A stretch of 64,000 bases of DNA from the NCBI GenBank assembly GCA_018335585.1, contig JAGXRZ010000040.1, forward strand, positions 23,906-87,905, written 5' to 3'. Below are positions 2,099 through 61,616 of this stretch, piece after piece (position 1 is the stretch's first letter; every line of letters begins with the position of its first letter). Source of the stretch: Selenomonadales bacterium (GTDB lineage: Bacteria; Bacillota; UBA994). The notes beneath the pieces are model-generated. The model ran no database searches, was not told the origin of the DNA, and worked only from the letters and a program-made list of their open reading frames with translations. The position numbers and the translations under genes are program-made.

Positions 2099-2872
2099 GT
2101 GTGGGACATGCTGTTTGCGATTGATGTTGGGAACACAAATATCGTCCTGGGGTTAGCAGATAACGGCAAATGGCTAGACACCTGGCGTATTTCCACGGAC
2201 ATTAAACGCACGGTGGACGAGTACTTTACAATTGTCTCAGCCTTGCTCGCGGCCGCGTCCTATCACCCCGCCGCAGTAAGCGGGGTTATAATCACTAATG
2301 TCGTGCCGCCTATCCAGGGCACGCTCGAACAGGTGGTACATAAGCTCTTTAAGCGCACGCCGTTAGTCGTAGGCGAAGGTGCCCGCACAGGGATTAAAAT
2401 CCGCACCGACAACCCGCGGGAGGTAGGTGCGGACAGGATTGTTAACTCGGTGGCTGCGTATCACCTCTACGGCGGCCCGGCGATTGTGGTAGATTTCGGT
2501 ACGGCGACGACTTTCGATGTCGTCTCTGCGCAAGGGGAATACTTAGGTGGAGCCATTGCGCCCGGCATCGGCATCTCCGCTGAGGCGCTCTTTTTGCGCG
2601 CTTCTAAGCTTAGCCGCGTCGAGCTCGAGCGTCCTAAGCGCGCCATCGGCAAAAACACGGTGGAAAGCATGCAGTCTGGTCTTGTCTTTGGCTATGCCGG
2701 GCTGGTAGAAGGCATGATCGCGCGGCTACAACGCGAATTAGGCCACAAGGCGCAAGTTATCGCGACCGGCGGTCTGGCACGGGTGGTGGCAGCAGAAACG
2801 CAGTGCATTGACCGCATTGACGACTTGCTGACACTAGAGGGGTTGAGGATAATTTGGGGGATGAATGCGTAG
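2099..2872 (+). CDS. coaX: Type III pantothenate kinase CoaX
   Basis: N-terminal AIDVGNTN motif and overall ASKHA-fold CoaX pattern; first gene of a CoA biosynthesis cluster. Confidence 0.85.
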   Translation: MWDMLFAIDVGNTNIVLGLADNGKWLDTWRISTDIKRTVDEYFTIVSALLAAASYHPAAVSGVIITNVVPPIQGTLEQVVHKLFKRTPLVVGEGARTGIKIRTDNPREVGADRIVNSVAAYHLYGGPAIVVDFGTATTFDVVSAQGEYLGGAIAPGIGISAEALFLRASKLSRVELERPKRAIGKNTVESMQSGLVFGYAGLVEGMIARLQRELGHKAQVIATGGLARVVAAETQCIDRIDDLLTLEGLRIIWGMNA

Positions 2873-2879
2873 TAGGGGT

Positions 2880-2992
2880 GCAGTTTGCACTTCGCACTTT
2901 GCACTTTGCACTTCGTAGTGTAATGCTCCAACTGCGAGCAGAGAACGCTACTTTCTCCACTAAGTGCTAAGTGCCAAGTGCCTAGTGCTACC
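2880..2992. repeat. Heptamer tandem-repeat locus A: [GCACTTN]x5, 43-bp spacer, inverted [NAAGTGC]x4
   Basis: gcagttt gcacttc gcacttt gcacttt gcacttc, then ctaagtg ctaagtg ccaagtg cctagtg in opposite orientation; lies between coaX stop and coaBC RBS. Confidence 0.8.
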
Positions 2993-3012
2993 ACGAGACA
3001 AGGAGGCCTCCC

Positions 3013-4191
3013 ATGAGCAAACAACACATCGTCCTCGGCGTAACCGGCAGTATTGCCGTGTATAAGGCAGCTGACTTAACCAGCCGCCTCGTTAAGGCTG
3101 GCTACATTGTCGACGTGATAATGACCAAGGCGGCGCAGGAGTTTGTGCAGCCGCTTACGTTTCAGGCGCTGACGCACCGCCCTGTAGTTACCGAAATGTT
3201 TACGCTGCACAACGAAATGTCGGTTGAGCATATTGCCTTGGCGGAGCGGGCGAATGTGCTCCTCATTGCCCCCGCGACGGCAAACATTATTGCCAAGCTT
3301 AGGCACGGCCTAGCGGACGATATGCTAAGCTGCACGGCGCTGGCCACACGGGCGCCGCTTGTTATCGCTCCCGCCATGAATAACGGCATGTACGAGAATC
3401 CGGTAACGCAAGAGAACATCGCGGTGCTAAAGGCGCGCGGCGTTACTTTTGTCGGCCCGGGCGAAGGGTATCTCGCCTGCGGCACCGTCGGGCGCGGGCG
3501 CCTTACGGAGATTTTGGATATCTTTGATACCGTAAAGATGGTGCTTGGGCGAAGCGGGGACTTAGCGGGACGAAAAGTCGTGATTACAGCGGGAGGTACA
3601 GAAGAACCGATTGATCCTGTGCGCTGTATTACTAACCGCTCCTCCGGCAAAATGGGCTATGCCTTAGCCGAGGCGGCGCGCGACCGCGGCGCGTCTGTGA
3701 CGCTAATCGCAGGCCCCACCAGCCTCCGCGCTCCCTACGGCGTCAACTGCGTTCCCGTACGCACCGCCCTGGAGATGCTTGCGGCAGTGCAGGCAGCCAC
3801 ACGCGACTGCGACGCCTTGGTGATGGCCGCCGCCGTCGCCGATTACCGCGTGGCCGAGGTGGCCGAACAAAAGATAAAGAAAGCCGCCAAAACTCTCAGC
3901 CTAGAGCTAGTAAAGAACCCGGACATTCTCGCTAGTCTTACCGGCGACTTTGCTAAAATAGGCTTTGCCGCCGAAAGCCAAGACCTCTTGGCTAACGCCG
4001 CGGCCAAACTAGAAGCCAAAGGACTGCACATGATTGTAGCTAACGACATCACACGCGCGGGTAGCGGCTTTGGCACAGAAACCAACGAAGCCACCCTGCT
4101 CTACCGGGGCGGCCGCCGCGAAGCTTTGCCGCTGATGACAAAAGAACGCCTAGCGCATATAATACTGGATAGACTAACCGACCTATACTAG
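3013..4191 (+). CDS. coaBC: Bifunctional phosphopantothenoylcysteine decarboxylase / phosphopantothenate-cysteine ligase CoaBC
   Basis: N-terminal flavoprotein domain (GVTGSIAVYK...) plus C-terminal CoaB ligase domain; 392 aa; GGAGG RBS. Confidence 0.9.
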   Translation: MSKQHIVLGVTGSIAVYKAADLTSRLVKAGYIVDVIMTKAAQEFVQPLTFQALTHRPVVTEMFTLHNEMSVEHIALAERANVLLIAPATANIIAKLRHGLADDMLSCTALATRAPLVIAPAMNNGMYENPVTQENIAVLKARGVTFVGPGEGYLACGTVGRGRLTEILDIFDTVKMVLGRSGDLAGRKVVITAGGTEEPIDPVRCITNRSSGKMGYALAEAARDRGASVTLIAGPTSLRAPYGVNCVPVRTALEMLAAVQAATRDCDALVMAAAVADYRVAEVAEQKIKKAAKTLSLELVKNPDILASLTGDFAKIGFAAESQDLLANAAAKLEAKGLHMIVANDITRAGSGFGTETNEATLLYRGGRREALPLMTKERLAHIILDRLTDLY

Positions 4192-8843: not shown

Positions 8844-8995
8844 GGGAAAATTGCGCCTCTTTGCAGGATATCCAACCGGCGGTAGCGAATAGTGCTCTAC
8901 CACAATGGAGGTGAGAAGTGTCAGCACGGTGTACAGGGTGGCGAATTTGTTGTGGGCTTACCAAATAGTTGCCATCTACTAAGGGAGGAGACGCA

Positions 8996-9514
8996 TTGGA
9001 GAACAGGGGGAGCGCGCCTAAGTTTGTGACGTTTCTGCACGAGCGGCTCGAGGCCATCCTGATGTGGCTAGTCTACCCGCTAGTCGCCGTCATGGTAGCA
9101 GAAATTGTTGCGCGGTATTTTTTCTTGCGCCCATTGCCGTGGGTGCGGGACGTGTCAGTTTGGCTTTTCGCTGTACCTTTTTTGCTCACAGTCGCGCACT
9201 ACTACAACAAGCGCGCCCACATCTCAGCTGAGGACTTGGTTTACGCCTTTCGCTTAAACGATGCGCAGCGCGCCACTATCGACCTAATTCACAACCTCAT
9301 CCTGCTAGCGGTGGCCGGGTTTCTCTTCTGGCCCGCGACGCAGGCGGTGCTGCGCTCATTTGCGCTGCAGGAGCTTTCCGGCATGACCACCTGGCGGCCC
9401 ATACTCTGGCCGTTTCGCGCCGTCATCCCCGCGGCCATGCTCTTGCTTGGGGCTCAGGCTGTAGTTGGGATCCTGGAGTCCGTACAGAAACTGCGGGGGG
9501 TGGATAAGCCGTGA
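8996..9514 (+). CDS. dctQ: TRAP transporter small permease (DctQ family)
   Basis: ~170 aa, four hydrophobic helices, precedes DctM; AGGGAGGAG RBS before TTG 8996 (ORF opens at 8969). Confidence 0.7.
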   Translation: MENRGSAPKFVTFLHERLEAILMWLVYPLVAVMVAEIVARYFFLRPLPWVRDVSVWLFAVPFLLTVAHYYNKRAHISAEDLVYAFRLNDAQRATIDLIHNLILLAVAGFLFWPATQAVLRSFALQELSGMTTWRPILWPFRAVIPAAMLLLGAQAVVGILESVQKLRGVDKP

Positions 9515-10924: not shown

Positions 10925-11998
10925 TTGAAAAAATCCCAACTAATCGTCTACGTTGCTATTGCCTTGGTCACATTCCTTGTCGGGTACGCGGTGCGGCCGA
11001 TGATTGCACCTGTCGCCGAAGGGCCCGAGGCGCAAGTATTCAACTGGACGTTCCAGATGCATGGCACGTCTGCTCACCCTGCCTTCCCCATTTACCAACG
11101 GTGGGCTAAAGACATCGCGGAAATGTCGGGTGGGCGCCTAAATATAACCGTGCATCCGGTGAACACGGCCGTGCCGCTCATGGAGACGCTAGGAGCGGTG
11201 ACGGCTGGTACGCTAGACGGCGCAATTATGTGGGGGCCTTTCTGGCGCGGGGTCGACCCTGTACTCGCGCTCTCTTGCGGGCAGACTTCGGGGCTGACTG
11301 CCGCTGAGTTTGACGCGTGGCTACACAGCCACGGCGGACTTGCGCTCGTACAAGAGGCGTATGCGCGTCACAAAATTCACTGGTTGCCGGCCGTGCCGAT
11401 GCCGCCGGAGACTTTCCTGTGGGCGCACAAGCCCATTCGCACCTCGGCAGACCTGCGTGGTCTGAAACTGCGCGCCGGCGGATTCTCGCTTGACACATTT
11501 ACCGCCATGGGCGCTGCAGCCTCCTTCCTTCCCGGGGGCGAGACTCCTCCGGCGCTGATGAAGAAGGTAGTAGATGCCGCCGAGTTTGGCGCATTGGTGC
11601 AAGACATAGCAGTAGGCTTCCACGACGCCGCTAAGTATGCCATGGTCGGCCCGCGCGCGCCGGTCATCTCAGATGACGTCATGATTAACATGGACAAATG
11701 GAACGCGCTCCCGCCGGACCTGCAAGGCATCGTCAACGCTTCCCTAGCCCGTCATGCTACCATAGGGTATATGGAGCTTTTACGGCAGGAAAAGCAGGCC
11801 ATGCAAACGGCTCTAGGTGCCGGAGTACGATTTATCCCTGTCTCCGAGGCGTTAATGAACGAGTTCCGCACCACGTTGGACGGTATTCTCGATACCCAAG
11901 CCGCGACTAACGCCAACTTTGCTAAAATATGGACTTCACTACGCGCCTTCCGCGACGACTATCGCGACTTTACGGAAACCTTGTATCCTTGGAACTAA
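10925..11998 (+). CDS. dctP: TRAP transporter solute-binding protein (DctP family), N-terminally membrane anchored
   Basis: Single N-terminal hydrophobic segment then DctP-family SBP domain; TTG 10925 sits 10 nt after GGAGG (ORF opens at 10916). Confidence 0.7.
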   Translation: MKKSQLIVYVAIALVTFLVGYAVRPMIAPVAEGPEAQVFNWTFQMHGTSAHPAFPIYQRWAKDIAEMSGGRLNITVHPVNTAVPLMETLGAVTAGTLDGAIMWGPFWRGVDPVLALSCGQTSGLTAAEFDAWLHSHGGLALVQEAYARHKIHWLPAVPMPPETFLWAHKPIRTSADLRGLKLRAGGFSLDTFTAMGAAASFLPGGETPPALMKKVVDAAEFGALVQDIAVGFHDAAKYAMVGPRAPVISDDVMINMDKWNALPPDLQGIVNASLARHATIGYMELLRQEKQAMQTALGAGVRFIPVSEALMNEFRTTLDGILDTQAATNANFAKIWTSLRAFRDDYRDFTETLYPWN

Positions 11999-12020
11999 GC
12001 TCTAGGCATTTCTTTGTGGC

Positions 12021-12066
12021 AAAAGAGCGGGTCCCACCGGGACGCCGCTCTTTGCTCTGTTTTTGC
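12021..12066 (+). terminator. Rho-independent terminator after dctP
   Basis: aaagagcgg...ccgctcttt long stem (inner gtccc/gggac) followed by gctctgttttt. Confidence 0.7.
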
Positions 12067-12119
12067 GGGCTCTCCGTTTTCCGCCTTCCTCTTTCCTCCT
12101 CCGCTCGGGGCCGTAAGCT

Positions 12120-12182
12120 GTGAGTTGTGAGTTGTGAGTTATGAGTTGCGAGTTGTGAGTTGTGAGTTGTGAGTTGTGAGCC
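12120..12182. repeat. Heptamer tandem-repeat locus B: [GTGAGTT]x9
   Basis: gtgagtt x3, atgagtt, gcgagtt, gtgagtt x3, gtgagcc; preceded by a CT-rich tract; immediately upstream of the fur-family promoter. Confidence 0.9.
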
Positions 12183-12191
12183 GTAACCTGT

Positions 12192-12243
12192 CCTTGACAT
12201 GTGTGCTTCTACATGACATAATCTTGACTGAACAGTAACTGTT
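12192..12243 (+). promoter_or_regulatory. Sigma-A-type promoter (TTGACA-17-CATAAT) with 6-1-6 palindrome AACAGTaACTGTT at the transcription start
   Basis: ttgacatgtgtgcttctacatgacataat followed by aacagtaactgtt; its position fits an autoregulatory Fur-family operator. Confidence 0.5.
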
Positions 12244-12266
12244 ACTAAAAAAATGAGGTGGCTATG

Positions 12267-12680
12267 ATGAGCGGTATGGTGCAAACGCTGCGAGAGAAAG
12301 GCCTGAAGGTGACGCCGCAACGCATGGCCATCTATAACATGCTTATGGCGACGACAGCGCATCCCACGGCAGAGGCAGTGTGGGAGCACGTCAAGGAGGA
12401 ATACCCAGCAGTGAGTTTTAACACCGTCTATACGACCTTAAACACCCTAGAGCAGGCGGGGCTCGTACAGCGCCTGCACATCGGCGGCGTCGCGCACTTT
12501 GACGCCAAGGTGCAGCCGCACGCTCACCTCTACTGTAACCACTGCGGCTTCGTAGAAGATCACCATGCCTTTATCGGTGTAGACTACGAAGATGTCGCGC
12601 GTCAGGTCAACGCCCAAACCGGCTTTGCCGTAGGACGCTTAGAGCTCAACTTCTACGGTTTGTGTCGGGAGTGTATGTAG
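12267..12680 (+). CDS. Fur-family metal-responsive transcriptional regulator (Fur/PerR/Zur type)
   Basis: Winged-helix N-terminus (VTPQRMAIY), C-terminal CxxC pairs (YCNHCGF and LCRECM); GAGGTGG RBS before ATG 12267 (ORF opens at GTG 12258). Confidence 0.8.
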   Translation: MSGMVQTLREKGLKVTPQRMAIYNMLMATTAHPTAEAVWEHVKEEYPAVSFNTVYTTLNTLEQAGLVQRLHIGGVAHFDAKVQPHAHLYCNHCGFVEDHHAFIGVDYEDVARQVNAQTGFAVGRLELNFYGLCRECM

Positions 12681-12686
12681 GTTTGT

Positions 12687-14822
12687 CTACATCCCCTTCA
12701 TCGACAGGCCGATGCGTTTGCGCTTTAGGTCAACGCTGAGAATCCTTACTTTTACTACATCGCCGACAGATAGGGCCTCGGACGGGTGCTTAATGTACTT
12801 GTCGCTTATCTCCGAGATATGCACTAGGCCGTCCTGCTTAACACCGATGTCTACAAACGCGCCGAAATCTATGACGTTGCGCACTACGCCGCTTAGCACC
12901 ATGCCCTCGGCGAGGTCTTCCATTTGCAGCACGTCGCTGCGAAACACGGGCCCGGCGACATCTTCGCGCGGATCCCTGCCCGGCTTTTTCAGGGCGTGGT
13001 AGATATCCCGCAGCGTGGGGAGACCGGCATTAAGCTCCTCTGCGGCTTTAGCGAGAGCCCCTTCGTTTAGCTGCACTTGTCCGGTGGTGAGCGACTCAAG
13101 GTTCCCTACAAGGCGCAAGAACTTCTCGGCTAGGTCATAGGATTCCGGGTGAACGGGCGTATTGTCCAGTATGTTTTTAGCGGCAGGTATCCTAGTAAAC
13201 CCTGCGCACTGCGTGTATGTGGCCGGGCCTAAGCGCGGCACTTTCCTTAGCTGCTCGCGGGAGGAAAACGCGCCGTGCTCGTCGCGAAACGCCACGATGT
13301 TCTTTGCCACCGTCGGGCTAACTCCCGCTACATAGCGCAAGAGCGCGGGTGAGGCGGTGTTAAGGTCAACGCCTACGCTGTTCACGCAGTCCTCAACTAC
13401 ACCCGTTAGCTTGCCGGCCAGCTGCTTTTGGTCGACATCGTGTTGGTATTGCCCGACCCCAATTGCTTTGGGGTCGATTTTTACTAGTTCGGCCAGCGGG
13501 TCGAGCACGCGGCGGCCGATCGACACCGCGCCGCGGAGGGTAACGTCTAAATCCGGCAGTTCTTGACCGGCTAGCTCGGACGCCGAGTAAACGGATGCCC
13601 CCGCCTCATTCACAATCGTATAGGACACGCGGAGATTATGCTCGCGGATTAGATTGGCGATAAAGTCCTCTGTTTCCCGGCTACCCGTGCCGTTGCCGAT
13701 GGCTATGGCTTGCACCCCATGGGTTTCTATCAGTTGCTTAACTAAGCGCGCGCCCCCGCTCCGGTCGTTTTGGGGCGGGGTAAAGTACGCCACGGCGGTG
13801 GCCAAAACTTTGCCTGTAGTGCCGACCACCGCCATTTTGCAGCCGGTGCGGTAGGCAGGGTCGATGGCGAGAAACGTCTTGCCCTTGACCGGGGCCAGTA
13901 ACAGCAACTGCTTAAGGTTCTGCCCAAACACCTTAATGGCTTGTTCCTCTGCTTGCTCGGTTAGGGTAGCCCTTAGCTCTCGCTCAATAGAGGGCAGCAG
14001 CAACCGCTTGCAGCCGTCGCGAATGGCGTCAACGAGGACCTGGCCAACTCCCGTCTGCGCGCCCATAAACCTTAGCGTCGCAACCTGATACGCCTTCTCC
14101 TCGGGATAGGTGAGCGTTACCTTGAGGACTTCCTCCCGTTCGCCGCGGTTAAGGGCGAGCACGCGGTGGGGCGGGATTTTGCGCACCGGTTCGCTGTAAT
14201 CGTAGTACATTTCGTACACGGATGTCTGCTCAGTGCCGATAGCTTTGGAAGCGATGCTCGCCTCCTGACGCAAGAAAGCGCGCACGGCTTCGCGTACGGC
14301 AAATGTTTCGCTCATGCGTTCGGCTAGGATGTCCTGTGCACCTTCGATGGCCGCCTCGACATCCAAAACGCCTAGTTCGGTGTTGACATAGGTCGAAGCA
14401 ACAGACAGAAGGCCGGCATAATCTAACCCGGGGTTAGCGGCTAGGTAGTCCGCTAAAGGTTCAAGGCCCTTTTCCTTGGCAATCGTCGCCTTGGTGCGCC
14501 GTTTGGGGCGGAAGGGCAGGTATATGTCTTCGACCTGCTGTAGTGTAGTGGCCCCGCGCAGGTTGCTTTCCACTTCAGGCGTGAGTTTGCCCTGCTCGGC
14601 GATAAGCCGCGCTACCTCTGCTTTGCGGGAGGCGAGGTTCTTAAGGTATGTAAGTCGCTCGTCAACTTCGCGCAGTTTAACTTCGTCAAGTTCCCCGGTT
14701 ACCTCCTTGCGGTAGCGGGCGATAAAAGGAATGGTGTTCCCCTCTGCTAGCAGCTTGTCTACGCTTTCTACTTGCTCGCGCTTAAGGCCAAGTTCATGCG
14801 CTATCTTTATGTGCAGATCCAT
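12687..14822 (-). CDS. tex: Transcription accessory protein Tex (S1 RNA-binding, YqgF/RNase H-like and HhH domains)
   Basis: 711 aa; C-terminal S1 domain (GMVLSGVVRNVIDFGAFVDIG), central YqgF and helix-hairpin-helix regions; convergent with the fur-family gene, 6 bp apart. Confidence 0.9.
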   Translation of the reverse strand: MDLHIKIAHELGLKREQVESVDKLLAEGNTIPFIARYRKEVTGELDEVKLREVDERLTYLKNLASRKAEVARLIAEQGKLTPEVESNLRGATTLQQVEDIYLPFRPKRRTKATIAKEKGLEPLADYLAANPGLDYAGLLSVASTYVNTELGVLDVEAAIEGAQDILAERMSETFAVREAVRAFLRQEASIASKAIGTEQTSVYEMYYDYSEPVRKIPPHRVLALNRGEREEVLKVTLTYPEEKAYQVATLRFMGAQTGVGQVLVDAIRDGCKRLLLPSIERELRATLTEQAEEQAIKVFGQNLKQLLLLAPVKGKTFLAIDPAYRTGCKMAVVGTTGKVLATAVAYFTPPQNDRSGGARLVKQLIETHGVQAIAIGNGTGSRETEDFIANLIREHNLRVSYTIVNEAGASVYSASELAGQELPDLDVTLRGAVSIGRRVLDPLAELVKIDPKAIGVGQYQHDVDQKQLAGKLTGVVEDCVNSVGVDLNTASPALLRYVAGVSPTVAKNIVAFRDEHGAFSSREQLRKVPRLGPATYTQCAGFTRIPAAKNILDNTPVHPESYDLAEKFLRLVGNLESLTTGQVQLNEGALAKAAEELNAGLPTLRDIYHALKKPGRDPREDVAGPVFRSDVLQMEDLAEGMVLSGVVRNVIDFGAFVDIGVKQDGLVHISEISDKYIKHPSEALSVGDVVKVRILSVDLKRKRIGLSMKGM

Positions 14823-14957
14823 AAACTACCTCCACAACAAAGTCTGCCGCACGGGCGCGGCACAGCCTATTATACCGGATTTTTGACACTTAGTCCGACT
14901 GAATAAACGGAGCCTTATATCCGTCCTGCCCAAATTTTAATGCACAGAGGCGGCCGC

Positions 14958-14986
14958 TTGACACGGGTAGGGCGCAATGCTATAGT
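14958..14986 (+). promoter_or_regulatory. Consensus-like sigma-A promoter TTGACA-17-TATAGT
   Basis: ttgaca cgggtagggcgcaatgc tatagt; drives a short leader that ends at an intrinsic terminator. Confidence 0.6.
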
Positions 14987-14992
14987 CGAGGC

Positions 14993-15146
14993 GAAAAGAA
15001 TAGTGGTCACGAGCTAAAGTGTGTCTAGGGTTCCGTAGCCTAAAGCTAGCCTGGACCGAGCGACACTAGCGCGTTGCGCTACACCGAAGGGATAAAAGCC
15101 CGGGCGGGGATGTTTTCTCGTAAACATCCCCGCCCGTTTTCTTTTT
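14993..15146 (+). ncRNA. Candidate structured leader / cis-regulatory RNA (~150 nt) upstream of the pur operon; class unassigned
   Basis: Bounded by the promoter above and a strong terminator (gggcggggatgttt...aaacatccccgccc + GTTTTCTTTTT at 15102-15146). Internal helices GUGUC..GACAC and UAGCGC-GUU-GCGCUA. Loop CUCGU is complementary to upstream ACGAG, suggesting a terminator/antiterminator switch. Confidence 0.35.
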
Positions 15147-15147
15147 C

Positions 15148-15528
15148 GCCAGCCGCCAGCCGCCAGCCGCCAGCCGCCAGCCGCCAGCCGCCAGCCGCCA
15201 GCCGCCAGCCGCCAGCCGCTGGCCGGCAGCGGAGCAGTGACGGGGTGGAAAGGTGGAAAGGTGGAAAAGTTAAAGGGGTAAGGGCTGTGAGCTGTGAGCT
15301 GTGAGGATAGGCTTTAGGCGTTAGGCGCTAGGGGAACGGGCTGTGAGCTTAAGCATTGAGCTGTGCACGAAGAGGAAGCGGATACCGCGGCGACGCGCTC
15401 TACTGGGCACTGAGCACTGGGCACTTCCCTACCAGGAGTCAGGAGCCAGCAGCTAGGAGCCCCTCGTCCTTCACGGAGCACGAAGCACGCTCCCTACTAG
15501 GATCCAGTAGCCAGTAGCCAGCCGCCCT
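15148..15528. repeat. Heptamer tandem-repeat locus C (~380 bp mosaic array)
   Basis: Blocks [GCCAGCC]x10, [GGTGGAAA]x3, [GTGAGCT]x3, [TAGGCNN]x3, [CTGGGCA/CTGAGCA]x3, [CAGGAGN]x4, [AGCACGN]x3, [CCAGTAG]x2; fills the whole interval between the leader terminator and the purB RBS. Confidence 0.9.
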
Positions 15529-15546
15529 ACAAAGGAGGAAGAACGA

Positions 15547-16839
15547 GTGATTGACCGCTACACCTCTCCCGCCATGTCTCGCCTGTGGGGCGCGGAGAAA
15601 AAGTTCGCGAAGTGGCTCGAAATTGAGATTCTCGCCTGCGAAGCGTGGAGTAAACTCGGCGTAATACCCGCTAGCGACGTCGACCTAATTCGCGCGCAGG
15701 CGAAGTTTAGCGTCGCACGCATCGACGAGCTAGAGCGCGAGACAAATCACGACGTCGTAGCCTTTACGCGTTGTGTCAGCGAATCGCTGGGGCCGGAAAA
15801 AAAGTGGGTGCACTACGGCCTTACCTCTACCGACGTTGTCGACACGGCGCTCTCTAGCCTTATCGTCGAGGCGCTAGACTTAGTAGCCGAAAAGCTCGGT
15901 TCCCTCCGCGATATCTGCGCCGCACAGGCGCGCCGCCATAAGTACACCCTCATCATGGGACGCACGCATGGCGTACATGCCGAGCCCACCACCTTTGGGC
16001 TAAAGCTTGCCGTATGGTACGCAGAAATCGAGCGTCATCTAGAGCGCCTTGCCGCCGCCCGCACGACTATGGCCGTTGGCAAGCTCTCGGGCGCTGTCGG
16101 CACGTACGCCAATATTGAGCCCTTTGTTGAGGAGTACGTTTGCACCCGTTTGGGCCTAACTCCGGCCAAAGCCGCCACTCAGACGCTACAGCGCGACCGC
16201 CACGCCTTCTTGTTATCTACTTTAGCCCTTGTCGGCTGTTCGCTTGAGAAGTTCGCCACCGAGATACGCGCCCTGCAAAAGACCGAGACGCGCGAAGTAG
16301 AGGAACCCTTTACCGCCGGGCAGAAGGGAAGCTCCGCCATGCCGCATAAACGTAATCCCATCATGTCTGAGCGCATCGTGGGCTTGTCGCGGGTTTTGCG
16401 CGGCTATGCGCTTACCGCCATGGAAAACGTAGCGCTCTGGCACGAACGCGACATCTCGCATTCCTCGGCGGAGCGCATTATTATCCCCGACGCCTTCCAC
16501 CTCCTCTACTACATGCTCGGTGTGCAGTGCCGCATCCTAGACGGACTTAACGTCTACCCCGAGCAGATGCGCGCGAACATGGAGCGCTCCTACGACCTTA
16601 CTTATTCACAGCAGGTTTTGCTTAAGCTGATTGAGTCCGGTCTGTCGCGCGAGGCCGCGTATGACCTTGTGCAGCGCCTCGCCATGCAGGCGTGGCGGGA
16701 AGGCTCTAGCTTTAAGACATTAGTCTTTGGCGAGCCCGAGATTACGGCACGCTTAGATGCGCCTACGCTCCTGCACTTGTTTGATATCTCCGCCCATACC
16801 AAGCACGTCGACACCATTTTTGCCCGCCTAGGGTTGTAG
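15547..16839 (+). CDS. purB: Adenylosuccinate lyase PurB
   Basis: 430 aa fumarase/aspartase fold with [11 protein letters not shown] signature; AAAGGAGGA RBS before GTG 15547. Confidence 0.9.
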
Positions 16840-16868: not shown

Positions 16869-17588
16869 ATGGAAAAGCGAAAGTTGCTCTACTCCGGCAA
16901 AGCCAAAGAAGTATATGCCACCGACGACCCAGACTTGTGCGTAGTCTACTTTAGGGATTCGGCCACGGCGTTTAACGCGCAAAAGAAGGGCGAAATCGCG
17001 GGCAAAGGCGAGCTCAACAACCTAATTTCGGCCCATTTCTTCCGGCTACTTGAGGCTCACGGCGTAAAGACGCACTTCCTGAGCGTTTTAACGCCACGCG
17101 AAATGCTAGTGCGTCGCCTCGAAATCATTAAGGTAGAGGTGGTAGTGCGCAACGTCGCCGCCGGGTCGCTTAGCCAGCGGCTGGGGCTGCCGGAAGGAAC
17201 GCAGTTAGCGCAGCCGGTGCTCGAATACTACTACAAGGACGACGCGCTCGGCGACCCGCTGGTAAACGACTATCACATTCAGGCGCTAGGGTGGGCCTCG
17301 CGCGACGAGATGAATGAGATTGCGGCTACGGCGCTTCGCATCAACGACATCCTCCTGCCAGCGCTTAAGGCCAGCGGCGTCCTCTTGGTAGACTTTAAGC
17401 TTGAATTCGGGCGTTTCGCCGGACAAGTCCTCCTCGGTGACGAAATTTCCCCCGACACTTGTCGCTTTTGGGACGCCACTACCCAGGAAAAACTAGATAA
17501 GGACAGATTCCGCCGCGACTTAGGCGGCGTCGCGGAAGCTTACCAAGAGATTTATCGGCGACTTAAAGGAGGCAAGGCAGATGTATAA
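16869..17588 (+). CDS. purC: SAICAR synthetase PurC
   Basis: 239 aa, [16 protein letters not shown]... typical PurC N-terminus; GAGGAGG RBS. Confidence 0.9.
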
Positions 17589-17832
17589 AGCAAAAATCTA
17601 CGTTACGCTGCGGCAAGGTATCCTCGACCCAGCCGGACAAGCCGTGCGAAAGGGCTTACACAGTCAAGGCTTTGGCTGTGTGCTGGACGTACGCATGGGC
17701 AAGTTTATGGAACTGACGCTAGAGGCAGGAAGTGAACGCGAGGCAAGTAGCCTAGTGCGCGAGACTTGCGAGCGGCTACTGGTTAATCCGGTTATGGAGG
17801 ACTACAACTTTACCCTTGAGGCTTTAGCATGA
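17581..17832 (+). CDS. purS: FGAM synthase PurS subunit
   Basis: 83-aa protein; position between purC and purQ, overlapping both. Confidence 0.85.
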
Positions 17833-22184: not shown

Positions 22185-23223
22185 GGAAGTAGGGGGCAGG
22201 GGAGCGGGTCTCACGTACCGCGACGCAGGCGTAGATGTCGCAGCCGGTCATCAAGCGGTTGACCTTATGCGGGCGCACGTGCGCTCTACCTTTCGCCGCG
22301 AGGTGCTGGGGGATATCGGCGGTTTCGGCGGGCTGTTTGCCTTAGGCAAGTACGAGGAGCCGGTCTTAGTGTCCGGCACGGACGGCGTCGGCAGCAAGCT
22401 TAAGGTAGCCTTTATGCTTGGGCGTCACAACACAGTCGGCATCGACCTCGTAGCCATGTCGGCCAACGACATCTTGGTCTCAGGTGCAGAGCCGCTGTTT
22501 TTCCTCGACTACATCGGCATTGCCCGCTTAGACCCCATTTTGGTGGCCGAGATTGTGGCCGGCGTTGCCGCAGGCTGCCAAGCCGCGGGGTGCGCGCTTA
22601 TAGGCGGCGAAACAGCCGAACTGCCAGACCTCTACAGCGCGGGCGAGTACGACCTAGCCGGGTTTGCCGTAGGTGTAGCGGAGAAAAAGCGTCTTATCGA
22701 CGGTAAAACAATTAGCTGTGGCGATATGCTGCTTGGGCTTGCGTCTAGCGGACTGCATAGCAACGGCTATTCGCTGGCGCGCAAACTAGTATTCGAAGTC
22801 GGCGGGTTTACCTGTGCCGATGTGCCGCCGGCACTAGGCGTAGCAGTCGGGGAAGAACTGCTCCGTCCGACGCGCATCTATGTGCGACCCGTACTGCCGC
22901 TAGTACGGCTAGGCTTAGTTAAAGGCATGGCCCACATTACAGGCGGCGGGTTTATCGACAATATTCCGCGCATGCTCCCCGCCGGTCTTGGCGTGGAAGT
23001 AACGCGCGGGAGCTGGCCTGTTTTGCCCGTTTTTGGCTGGCTCCAAGAACTTGGTCAGGTAGCCGAGAGCGAAATGTACCGCACGTTTAATATGGGAATT
23101 GGCTTTGTGCTCTTTGTGGCCGCAACAGACGTAGCCGCAGTACGCGAGCGGCTTGCAGGCTTTGGCGAAGAAAGCTATGTCATAGGGAAAGTAATCGCGG
23201 GTGAGGGGGTTTCGCTTGTCTGA
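22168..23223 (+). CDS. purM: AIR synthetase PurM
   Basis: 351 aa; YRDAGVDV N-terminal motif and PurM fold. Confidence 0.9.
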
Positions 23224-23224
23224 T

Positions 23225-23920
23225 GTGACACAACACTTCCCCAAGCGACAAGCGACAAGCGACAAGCGACATACGCCAAGCGACAAGCGACATCCCCCCC
23301 CCTTACGCCTTGCCGTCCTAGTCTCAGGCGGCGGAACTACTTTGCAGGGGCTAATAGACGCCATAGCGGCAGGCTCGCTCGGCGCGGAAATCGCCTTGGT
23401 CGTCAGTTCGCGGCGCGATGCTTTCGCCCTTGAGCGCGCGCGCCGCTCCGACATTCCTACCTGCGTACTTAGCAGGCGCGCTTTCACAACGCCCGAGCAA
23501 CACGATGCGGCCCTCGCCGGGCTACTGCAGCAACACCAAGTTGACCTCGTCGTCTTAGCGGGCTACTTGCTGCCCATAGGCCAAGCGACGCTAAGTGCGT
23601 TCCCGGGGCGGATTATAAACATTCATCCCAGTCTCCTGCCCGCCTTTGGCGGACGGGGATATTACGGGTCACGCGTACATACCGAAGTTCTGGAGCACGG
23701 CTGTAAGATTACCGGGGCTACCGTGCACTTTGTGGAGGCCGAGCTCGACACAGGACCCATAATTTTGCAGGGAGCCGTAGAAATAGAGGACGACGACACG
23801 AGCGAGTCGCTCGCAGCTAAGGTAGGAGAACTCGAGCGCGAGCTGTACCCAAGAGCCATTCAACTTTTTGCCGACGGCAAGCTCCGGCAAGTCGGGCGCA
23901 GGGTAACGATTCTAAAGTGA
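23225..23920 (+). CDS. purN: GAR formyltransferase PurN, with repeat-encoded N-terminal extension
   Basis: Conserved PurN core starts at LRLAVLVSGGG (~23303) and contains the HPSLLP motif. The only in-frame starts (GTG 23201, TTG 23216, GTG 23225) lie upstream of the heptamer array. ~26 extra residues (TQHFPKRQATSDKRHTPSDKRHPPP) are therefore translated from the CAAGCGA repeats and a C9 tract. Confidence 0.8.
   Translation: MTQHFPKRQATSDKRHTPSDKRHPPPLRLAVLVSGGGTTLQGLIDAIAAGSLGAEIALVVSSRRDAFALERARRSDIPTCVLSRRAFTTPEQHDAALAGLLQQHQVDLVVLAGYLLPIGQATLSAFPGRIINIHPSLLPAFGGRGYYGSRVHTEVLEHGCKITGATVHFVEAELDTGPIILQGAVEIEDDDTSESLAAKVGELERELYPRAIQLFADGKLRQVGRRVTILK
23242..23302. repeat. Heptamer tandem-repeat locus D: [CAAGCGA]x4, catacgc, [CAAGCGA]x2, then cat+C9, inside the purN 5' coding region
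   Basis: Copy number taken from the ORF-track translation (KRQATSDKRHTPSDKRHPPP), which requires four plus two units followed by nine C. Confidence 0.8.
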
Positions 23921-38187: not shown

Positions 38188-42562
<4,375 letters not shown>

Positions 42563-60728: not shown

Positions 60729-61229
60729 ATGTACCGCAGAGAAAAACTTGACGACACACACCCCGATTTTTATCCCGTTTTGGCCAAAGAGCTTCACCAT
60801 TTAGTAGAGTTCGAAGCAGAGTGGTTAGCGTCGCTCAGTAACGCGGCTGCGCTACTTGGGCATCAGCTAGGGCGCATTAACTGGGCGGGGTTCTATCTGG
60901 TTAAAGAAGGCCTATTGGTGCTTGGCCCTTTTTGGGGCAAGCCGGCCTGTTCTGCGATTGTCTTGGGAGAGGGTGTCTGTGGCGCTGCTGCTCTAAGGCG
61001 CGAGACAATAGTCGTGCCCGATGTGCACGCCTTCCCCGGACACATTGCCTGCGACGAAGCCTCGCAGTCTGAAATCGTAGTGCCGATAATCTACCGCGGC
61101 GAACTTAAAGGCGTGCTCGATATCGACAGCCCAGAAAAAAACCGCTTCCTCCCCCGCGACCAAGCAGGGTTAGAAGCGTTTGTGGCTGTACTGGCGAGTG
61201 TGCTGCCGTGGGATAGGGTGGTGTTTTAG
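60729..61229 (+). CDS. GAF-domain free methionine-(R)-sulfoxide reductase (fRMsr)
   Basis: ~166 aa GAF fold with NWAGFYL and the conserved Cys triad region (CSAIVLGEGVCGAAA ... HIACD). Confidence 0.75.
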   Translation: MYRREKLDDTHPDFYPVLAKELHHLVEFEAEWLASLSNAAALLGHQLGRINWAGFYLVKEGLLVLGPFWGKPACSAIVLGEGVCGAAALRRETIVVPDVHAFPGHIACDEASQSEIVVPIIYRGELKGVLDIDSPEKNRFLPRDQAGLEAFVAVLASVLPWDRVVF

Positions 61230-61530
61230 GCGCCAGCCGCCGGGAGAGATTGCACTTCGCACTTGGCACTTAGCACTTAGTGGAGGACGAGGGGTTGCTG
61301 GCTGCTGGCTCCTGGCTCCTGGTAGAGAAGGTGCCCAGTGCCCAGTGCCCAGTAGAGCGCGTCGCAGCGGTTTCGGTTTCCCTTTGACCTTTCCACCCTC
61401 CATGCTCACAACTCACAACTCACAACTCACAATTCACAACTCACAAGCGACAAGGGACAAGCGACAAGGGACAAGCGACAAGGGACAAGCGACAAGGGAC
61501 AAGCGACATGCGACAAGCGACAAGCCACCA
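61230..61530. repeat. Heptamer tandem-repeat locus E (~300 bp mosaic array)
   Basis: gccagccgcc, [GCACTTN]x4, [GCTGGCT/GCTCCTG]x4, [GTGCCCA]x3, ggtttcggtttcc, cctttccacc, [CACAACT]x5, then alternating [CAAGCGA/CAAGGGA]x11; spans from the fRMsr stop to 80 bp before nrdD. Confidence 0.9.
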
Positions 61531-61545
61531 AACAATTGCCCCTAA

Positions 61546-61592
61546 GCACAATATGTAGTATACTTGCTTACAACGATATCCCACTAATAGTG
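61546..61592. promoter_or_regulatory. Putative tandem NrdR boxes upstream of nrdD
   Basis: cacaatatgtagtata and ccactaatagtgca, near-palindromic, centres ~33 bp apart, ~25-70 bp upstream of the nrdD start. Confidence 0.45.
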
Positions 61593-61616
61593 CATAAGGC
61601 TTAGGAGGAACAGCAC

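Follow-up and report, generated by a model that had tools for sequence, protein, structure and literature searches.

Tandem heptanucleotides are the commonest class of long simple sequence repeats (SSRs) in many prokaryotes and lie mostly between genes, according to Mrazek (2007) as relayed in PMC4679880 and PMC4692102. In the accounts given by these two papers, polymerase slippage is the only origin proposed for such repeats, and their function is not established. The closest described system is that of the short tandemly repeated repetitive (STRR) sequences of Calothrix, Anabaena, and Nostoc, described in 1990 (Mazel et al., cited in PMC4692102). Here we report on six loci made of tandem 7-nucleotide (nt) units, arrays A to F in order of position, that were noticed in a 64,000-nt stretch of DNA (the window) from an uncultured bacterium labeled as Selenomonadales (assembly GCA_018335585.1, contig JAGXRZ010000040.1, positions 23,906 to 87,905). 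With a probability of roughly 0.6, we read them as a lineage-specific, STRR-like family of mosaic heptanucleotide long SSRs, a slippage-driven filler of intergenic space in an uncultured, Bacillota-affiliated, NPL-UPA2-like genome.

The preliminary description of the window had named the cyanobacterial STRR sequences as the nearest analogue, and the comparison is fair. As STRR sequences are portrayed in the paper that cites them, they share with our arrays several kinds of tandem heptamer, juxtaposed at dispersed noncoding loci, with some inverted pairs and with lengths that vary between strains. The two also differ. The STRR units CCCCAGT, TTGGTCA, and CAACAGT do not occur in tandem on either strand of the window, and the host belongs to a Bacillota-affiliated candidate division instead of the heterocystous cyanobacteria. 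Moreover, ordered blocks with their linkers are paralogous between our loci, and one array is translated. The long SSRs with units of 5 to 11 nt (Mrazek, Guo and Shah 2007), as later papers summarize them, are similar in having tracts beyond chance expectation, a period of 7, an intergenic bias, a scattered phylogeny, and slippage as the proposed origin. Our arrays exceed chance length, have units within the 5- to 11-nt range with 7 nt predominating, are intergenic at five of the six loci, and are polymorphic between strains. What falls outside that survey, as it is summarized there, is this lineage, the paralogy of mosaic blocks, and the horizontal exchange of a tract.

Other heptamer families share part of this picture. 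The GGGNATC/GGGGAYT repeats of Xanthomonas and Nostoc (Rehm et al. 2015, PMC4692102) are intergenic, count 2 to 26 units and often about 4, include some inverted pairs, and vary widely in length and sequence between close species at the same sites (PMC4692102). They form one G-quadruplex-prone family, however, whereas the units here are diverse and without G-tracts; our unit census of the window found no GGGAATC or GGGGATT tandems and no dominant unit containing G3. The TAACTGA repeats of marine Beggiatoaceae, cyanobacteria, and Bacteroidetes (MacGregor 2015, PMC4679880) are likewise intergenic direct repeats, often just 5' of start codons, and are suspected of horizontal spread by a mechanism that is not known (PMC4679880). 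They consist of a single unit at a constant position a few nucleotides 5' of the start, in contrast to the many units and varied positions seen here. The four-heptamer elements of Geobacter metallireducens (GGGACCG, 49 copies) and the (GATAGRA)n satellites of Chloroflexus are also dispersed, between genes and at times within them (PMC2700814, PMC6749651), but each is a single-unit family, while here composite blocks of many modules are dispersed. The genome paper on NPL-UPA2 (PMC6305446) makes no mention of repeats.

None of the known units STRR1 to STRR3, TAACTGA, GGGAATC, GGGGATT, GATAGAA, and GGGACCG is ever in tandem in the window. Bacterial interspersed mosaic elements (BIMEs), repetitive extragenic palindromic (REP) sequences, and BOX elements are built of palindromic or structured modules of 20 to 40 nt, and CRISPR arrays consist of 23- to 50-nt repeats with unique spacers of similar length. 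Our arrays resemble BIME/REP and BOX elements as modular, multicopy intergenic mosaics that can lie either way round and whose module number varies; they differ in that the modules are heptamer arrays and that most loci fold no better than shuffled sequences. They are thus neither CRISPR nor REP-like, as the preliminary description had held, their 7-nt units being arranged head to tail. With miniature inverted-repeat transposable elements (MITEs) and BIMEs they share multiple copies in both orientations, but not the terminal inverted repeats or palindromes and the target-site duplications. Heptamer arrays as such are already known; new is their presence in the NPL-UPA2 lineage, and the instructive features are the paralogy of blocks, the translated array, and a tract exchanged between lineages.

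Reading of the sequence and Tandem Repeats Finder (TRF) bore out all six loci as head-to-tail 7-nt units. The claim that every unit is 7 nt long holds for nearly all of them and fails for GGTGGAAA, which has 8 nt. A lag scan of the window (12 of 14 matches) returned 15 segments of period 7, totaling 654 nt, and 0 or 1 segment for each of the other periods within 4 to 12; 20 Markov shuffles gave 0 or 1 period-7 segments. Of exact runs, the window has 11 with period 7 and 5 with period 14, and no other period exceeds 1; the higher-order periods reported by TRF, 14 and 21 nt, are both multiples of 7. As a comparison set we used 79 purB-centered loci of other genomes, all other Bacillota DNA, which together span 1.49 Mb and contain only 3 period-7 segments. 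The density is therefore about 230 segments per Mb in the window versus about 2 per Mb in the comparison loci. At least 12 types of unit are spread over the six loci in 64 kb. The arrays account for about one-quarter of the intergenic DNA (~1.1 kb of 4.1 kb), and the two longest spacers are made of them. The 9.7 kb downstream of the window contain no further arrays.

The same sequences are present in independent assemblies. The ENA contig (L081/L230) and four Logan assemblies from other read sets (L082 and L231 to L233) match the window at 99.99 to 100% over their overlaps. These four short-read assemblies come from the same strain, and their contigs have ends within the GCCAGCC, CAAGCGA, and GCGACAA arrays; three of the contigs begin inside array F. 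Such contig ends are expected with dispersed repeats.

Pfam confirmed the names given to the flanking genes (CoaX/CoaBC, DctP/Fur family, Tex/PurB, PurM/PurN, PcrA/LigA, and GAF/NrdD). Array A (2879 to 2992) lies between the coaX stop codon (2872) and the ribosome-binding site (RBS) and ATG (3013) of coaBC. It consists of four GCACTTY units (2887 to 2915), a spacer of about 45 nt, and four inverted units, CTAAGTG or CCAAGTG (2960 to 2990), and is the only locus with a clear hairpin (RNA fold of -51.6 kcal/mol). Array B (12069 to 12192) extends from the terminator-like hairpin that follows dctP (~12031 to 12043 plus a T-run) to the -35 box of the predicted promoter of a fur-family gene, with degenerate CTTTCCG-type units (12069 to 12102) followed by nine GTGAGTT units (12113 to 12184). 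Array C (15141 to 15531) occupies the purB leader from the T-run of a riboswitch terminator to the purB RBS (AGGAGG, ~15534). Its modules are set apart by nonrepeat linkers: first about 12 copies of GCCAGCC, three of GGTGGAAA, three of GCTGTGA, and four of TAGGCNN, and later three of CTGGGCA, four of a CCAGGAG type, two of GRAGCAC, and four of a CCAGTAG type. Within it, a composite block (15374 to 15485) reads linker GCGACGCGCTCTA, CTGGGCA three times, a linker, CCAGGAG four times, and linker CCCCTCGTCCTTCAC.

Array D (23234 to 23295, + strand) has four CAAGCGA units, one variant unit, and two further CAAGCGA units, and lies inside the 5' end of the purN open reading frame (ORF). Array E (40383 to 40567) takes up the whole spacer between pcrA and ligA, bounded by the stop codon at 40386 and the RBS (GGAGG, ~40567; ATG at 40580), with seven CGTGCNN, three CTAGCTC-type, four TTCACGA, and three GCTCAAC-type units. 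Array F (61230 to 61535) runs from the stop codon of a GAF-domain gene (61229) to the -35 box of a promoter-like site of nrdD. It starts with GCCAGCCGCC, four GCACTTN, four CTGGCTC-type, and three GTGCCCA units and a linker containing a single TTTCCACC, and continues with six CTCACAA units and about six repeats of GCGACAA GGGACAA, a 14-nt higher-order repeat. The junctions from CTCACAA to GCGACAA, from GCTGTGA to TAGGCNN, and from CTAGGAT through CCAGTAG to CCAGCCG each form one continuous lag-7 segment. Such in-register junctions, together with the 14- and 21-nt repeats, are the pattern expected from mutation of a unit followed by its re-amplification.

Several ORFs span arrays: 61180 to 61545 (+ strand, 121 amino acids, array F), 40388 to 40579 (+), 11970 to 12389 (-), and 2692 to 3027 (-). 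They are most likely spurious, arising from stop-free repeat units. A ligA start at 40388, reading across array E, was considered and rejected, its 64-codon open frame being judged to be chance (~0.1); the real start is set by the RBS, the ATG at 40580, and a Pfam N-terminal domain that begins at residue 3.

We then compared the loci with one another. All cross-locus word pairs that had been listed are correct (GTGAGTT/AACTCAC, GGTGGAAA/TTTCCACC, CTGGGCA/TGCCCAG, CAAGCGA, and GCACTTN), and the resemblance goes beyond single words to ordered blocks of modules with their nonrepeat linkers, in both orientations. The block at 15374 to 15485 in array C is 82 to 90% complementary to 61269 to 61381 in array F; against the reverse complement of array F, the Smith-Waterman score is 144 over about 140 nt. 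The segment at 40437 to 40485 in array E is 88% identical to 61280 to 61328 in array F, and its reverse complement partially matches the array C block. Array A matches array F twice, at 2882 to 2916 (89% identical to 61247 to 61281) and at 2944 to 2988 (84% complementary to 61252 to 61296). Because ordered blocks and linkers are common to the loci, these are paralogous copies of a composite sequence. The shared words had been thought to imply a dedicated mechanism of generation or recognition. They are accounted for by the paralogy of whole blocks, while the mechanism itself is neither established nor refuted.

Relatives of the window were reached via the PurB protein. The nearest named ones are metagenome-assembled genomes (MAGs) labeled Firmicutes or candidate division NPL-UPA2, in line with the earlier view of the host as Firmicute-like. 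The identity of their Pur proteins to those of the window is about 98% (92.6 to 99%) for L083, 89% for L086, 82% for L001, and 78% for L088. Comparison of the window with L083 revealed the copy-number polymorphism that the preliminary description had suggested looking for between strains. The GCCAGCC tract is 85 nt long (~12 copies) in the window versus 28 nt (~3 copies) in L083. The GRAGCAC tract is longer in L083 by 21 nt, equal to 3 units (40 nt against 19 nt in the window); the short modules of array C with three or four copies are unchanged. The array upstream of fur is several-fold larger in L083, with GAGCGTT 11 times, AATCATG 4 times, CTTTCCG 3 times, and GTGAGYT 9 times. L088 keeps part of array C as well as the purN array, L086 has only four degenerate GCTAGGN units 5' of purB, and at the locus compared L235 has no arrays. 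In L234, an NPL-UPA2 MAG, the linker CCGTCCAC and seven YAWGTGC units stand 5' of purB, the same combination as in arrays A and F. The more distant L236 (48% GC) has other heptamer arrays.

We also observed that the spacer between the convergent genes fur and tex, 6 nt long in the window (12681 to 12686), measures about 190 nt in L083 (6976 to 7176). It begins with a GCTTGTC-type array and also holds a degenerate GCC-rich array and a terminator hairpin. The 8-nt unit GGTGGAAA, present three times at 15244 to 15267, is perfectly kept in L083 and L088, and a single inverse copy lies at about 61390.

At the purM/purN junction, a tract of about 240 nt that comprises the 3' end of purM, the array, and the 5' end of purN (window ~23100 to 23336, L083 ~17550 to 17790, L088 ~8980 to 9220) is 95 to 100% identical between L083 and L088, while its flanks are only 55 to 80% identical. 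Within this tract, the identity of L083 to the window drops to 55 to 78%. A near-identical tract within diverged flanks points to the exchange of array-bearing DNA between lineages by homologous recombination.

Contrary to the preliminary description, which had the 23.2-kb array as noncoding, array D is in frame within the purN ORF. The start codon of purN is TTG at 23216, which overlaps the purM stop codon (23221 to 23223) and is also used in the relatives, and the ENA gene call for purN is 23216 to 23920. The array encodes ...PKRQATSDKRHTPSDKRH..., which precedes the conserved LRLAVLVSGGG core; the DNA from the array to this core contains no start codon. The frame is open across the array in the window, L083, and L088, and the length differences between genomes are in frame: 21 nt (7 codons), an extra copy block in the window, within the array and 12 nt overall. 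L086 and L001 do not have the insert, and the Pfam Formyl_trans_N domain of PurN begins at residue 31. The insert sits in a dispensable N-terminal tail of PurN, and the lengthening of this tail by 19 residues is probably incidental. The peptide PKRQATSDKRH(TPSDKRH) that the array contributes is found at 23216 to 23302 in the window, 17660 to 17740 in L083, and 9095 to 9165 in L088. In L083, the array seems to have misled the JGI gene caller, which placed the start of a shortened purN at 17779.

These observations can be put together as follows if the arrays are a mosaic, slippage-driven long-SSR family. Units would be gained and lost by replication slippage or unequal recombination, processes that could produce the observed copy-number differences between strains. 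Point mutation would create variant units, and their re-amplification in register would yield the mosaic of modules and the 14-nt repeats, a history suggested by the register kept at the junctions. Composite blocks of modules and linkers, whose paralogy we see among the loci, would have spread as copies to further intergenic sites, in one orientation or the other, and homologous recombination would swap array-bearing tracts between coexisting lineages, as the purM/purN tract indicates. Expansion would stop at functional elements (on one side a stop codon or a terminator, on the other a -35 box, an RBS, or a conserved protein core), so that the spacers end up filled over their full length. In purN, the only lengths to survive would be those in frame. 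The arrays do fill their spacers, and they seem to behave as tolerated spacer filler and not as a sequence-specific regulatory device. Their effects on neighboring genes, such as longer leaders, the occasional hairpin of array A, and the PurN tail, are probably incidental.

Some points weigh against this explanation. Slippage alone leaves the exclusivity of period 7 unaccounted for, and it offers composite blocks no route to new sites. Between the window and L088, positions 15148 to 15297 of array C show 92 to 96% identity, a level equal to that of the riboswitch next to them; instead of horizontal exchange, this could reflect purifying selection and hence a function. Arrays B and F abut -35 boxes, a position compatible with a role as upstream promoter DNA. 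The analysis covered some 74 kb of this genome and, for each of a few relatives, some 20 kb.

An alternative is that the loci are a mobile composite, similar to a MITE or BIME, or the product of a dedicated generator such as a reverse transcriptase (RT), a primase-polymerase, or a recombinase, with slippage only adjusting copy numbers later. Four or more loci contain paralogous blocks, in both orientations and with their linkers conserved, which argues for this possibility, as do the recurrence of CCGTCCAC with seven YAWGTGC units 5' of purB in L234, the near-identical array tracts in distant lineages, the array-bearing insertion of about 190 nt in L083, and the period-7 exclusivity itself. 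A repeat-pair search of the six loci, however, found no terminal inverted repeats at the locus ends and no constant element ends, and the filled-versus-empty comparison at fur/tex revealed no recognizable target-site duplication. Block boundaries are ragged, the module content is different at each locus, no transposase or RT gene was noticed among the Pfam-annotated genes next to arrays, and the purN tract is flanked by homologous coding DNA, which fits ordinary recombination. We regard a mobile or generated composite as unlikely, if by no means far-fetched.

A broader version of the idea, in which an active, heptamer-specific, and horizontally spreading process, driven by a host or selfish enzyme, creates or propagates the arrays, seems to us distinctly unlikely. 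It draws on the period-7 exclusivity, the blocks in both orientations, and the near-identical tracts in lineages whose genes are only about 75% identical. If it were true, the heptamer arrays of cyanobacteria, Xanthomonas, Chloroflexus, and others could have the same origin, and the contrast between array-rich (window, L083, L088, and L234) and array-poor (L001 and L235) loci within NPL-UPA2 could make the hunt for the responsible gene, by its presence or absence, tractable.

The gene contexts bear on the possible functions. The preliminary description had every array transcribed into the 5' untranslated region (UTR) of a + strand housekeeping gene, and this is not supported: only array C lies in a predicted leader. 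Array B ends about 2 to 10 nt before a promoter-like site, TTGACA-17-CATAAT (12194 to 12222, 11 of 12 matches, TG extended), and array F adjoins another (61536 to 61564, 9 of 12 matches). Since both end 2 to 10 nt before such strong or moderate -35/-10 sites, they are predicted to be upstream of promoters and not in 5' UTRs. Arrays A and E, between the same-strand neighbors coaX-coaBC and pcrA-ligA, reach from stop codon to RBS and may be intercistronic. In L083, the array behind fur is situated between the fur stop codon and a terminator, i.e., in a 3' UTR, where the window has a gap of 6 nt. The window contains 25 intergenic gaps of at least 40 nt, 16 of which precede a + strand gene and 23 of which lie upstream of some gene anyway. 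Arrays are found in 5 of the 25. All five intergenic arrays precede + strand genes, but this apparent strand bias is not significant (p ~0.08).

A role at the DNA level, as phased protein-binding or structural DNA (sites for nucleoid proteins, promoter-upstream elements, insulators, or spacers), is improbable. In its favor, three units make 21 bp, which is two helical turns; arrays B and F abut -35 hexamers, and spacers between transcription units are filled exactly; the independence of orientation fits double-stranded DNA; and, in a distant relative, the conservation of part of array C is high. Yet the units differ greatly in sequence, copy number changes freely between relatives at 98% identity and nothing compensates for it, and 20 of the 25 comparable spacers in the window do without an array. 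A leader, the space between same-strand genes, and the inside of an ORF are further places where arrays are present, and no binding protein is known.

At purB, a near-consensus promoter-like site (14958 to 14986), a ykkC-class aptamer (15014 to 15108), and an intrinsic terminator (15101 to 15136, a 15-bp stem followed by a T-run) precede the array on the + strand (14958 to 15136 in all) and lie outside the repeat family. With these elements upstream, array C, which continues for about 390 nt to the purB RBS, is predicted to be leader sequence. An E-value search of 14800 to 15600 scored the aptamer (RF00442) at 62.0 bits with an E value of 1.6e-10. The gathering score is 63, slightly higher, and the aptamer is missed at the default Rfam threshold; a search of the whole window at gathering thresholds gave no hits. 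Apart from ykkC, the E-value search of 14800 to 15600 returned only Collinsella-1, a 15-bit match to the GCCAGCC run that is due to chance. The riboswitch region is kept in L083, L086, and L088. By gene context, the aptamer fits a singlet phosphoribosyl pyrophosphate (PRPP) riboswitch (ykkC subtype 2b). Riboswitches of this subtype are typical of purine biosynthesis operons in Firmicutes, and in Heliobacterium modesticaldum a singlet PRPP riboswitch controls purB (PMC5912903).

It could be proposed that the arrays are cis-acting 5'-UTR RNA to which a dedicated RNA-binding protein, for example, a Csp or S1-domain protein, binds at about 7 nt per monomer, thereby tuning translation or mRNA stability of housekeeping genes. 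This proposal would suit array C, between riboswitch terminator and RBS, as well as arrays A and E, which end a few nucleotides before an RBS between same-strand genes. Arrays C, E, and F are unstructured (z ≥ 0), as single-strand binding sites would be, and the binding of one heptamer per monomer by CspB is discussed in PMC4679880. On the other hand, arrays B and F are upstream of predicted promoters, array D is coding, and the L083 array is in a 3' UTR. The composite block occurs in opposite orientations 5' of + strand genes (array C versus arrays F and E), so the RNAs would be complementary instead of alike. Twelve or more unrelated units would call for many specificities or none, and L086 and L001 have no arrays at the same genes. 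A common RNA structure was considered and rejected, as arrays A, C, E, and F have no shared fold (z scores against shuffles of -3.2, +2.3, +0.5, and +2.6, respectively). Constant position, strand, and structure or motif, which would mark a 5'-UTR element, are not found among the arrays. Occurrence in both orientations and discordant folding make a strand-specific 5'-UTR RNA element unlikely as judged from the sequences, and the version with a dedicated binding protein is quite improbable.

It is very improbable that the arrays are contingency loci whose copy number switches neighboring genes on and off (phase variation). Copy number is indeed polymorphic between strains, and a change by a single unit in array D would frameshift purN; however, the neighbors are housekeeping genes, no array lies between a -35 and a -10 box, and the intragenic array differs only by in-frame lengths, a sign of selection against switching. 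That the arrays are an artefact of assembly or sequencing is effectively refuted, since the same sequences appear in ENA, Logan (four read sets), and JGI (three samples) assemblies and diverged relatives carry orthologous arrays, although short-read assemblers do break at arrays and the copy numbers of the longest tracts (GCCAGCC, ~12 copies, and GCGACAA/GGGACAA) could be misestimated.

Two further features of the spacers were noted in passing. Between the promoter-like site and the start of nrdD (61549 to 61594) there are two 16-nt motifs, ACAATATGTAGTAT and CACTAATAGTGCAT, which, judged by eye against the consensus, resemble NrdR boxes. The palindrome AACAGTAACTGTT (12229 to 12241), between the promoter-like site and the start of the fur-family gene, may be a candidate autoregulatory operator.

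We investigated how widespread such arrays are by scanning metagenomes for (GTGAGYT)n, which gave at least 119 contigs with GC contents of 27 to 71%. Among the matches listed, there are 268 period-7 segments in 722 kb, and at least 36 contigs have three or more arrays, frequently arranged as inverted pairs. Viral contigs gave 3 to 12 matches to arrays of words from the window versus 1 and 3 for two permuted control heptamers. The idea of a special or universal vocabulary was rejected on this comparison; heptamer arrays of whatever word are widespread. Very dense mosaic heptamer arrays were also seen in the unrelated metagenome and viral contigs L104 (68% GC), L210 (IMG/VR 3300036770_005734, 63% GC), L100, L139, and L091, with counts of 11 in a length of 7.6 kb and again 11 in a length of 12.7 kb. 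L104, L139, and L091 have many adjacent inverted pairs, which would form long heptamer-periodic hairpins.

The arrays do not reveal a new regulatory system, and the preference for 7 nt has remained without explanation since the STRR sequences of 1990, as far as the papers cited here trace it. For work on genomes of this kind, it matters that arrays fragment short-read assemblies, yield spurious ORFs, and mislead gene callers about start codons. For the biology of the family, the arrays add a Bacillota-affiliated candidate division of serpentinite-type habitats to the lineages that are rich in them. They also provide natural experiments, as the same intergenic sites can be compared across relatives of 98%, 89%, 82%, and 78% identity.

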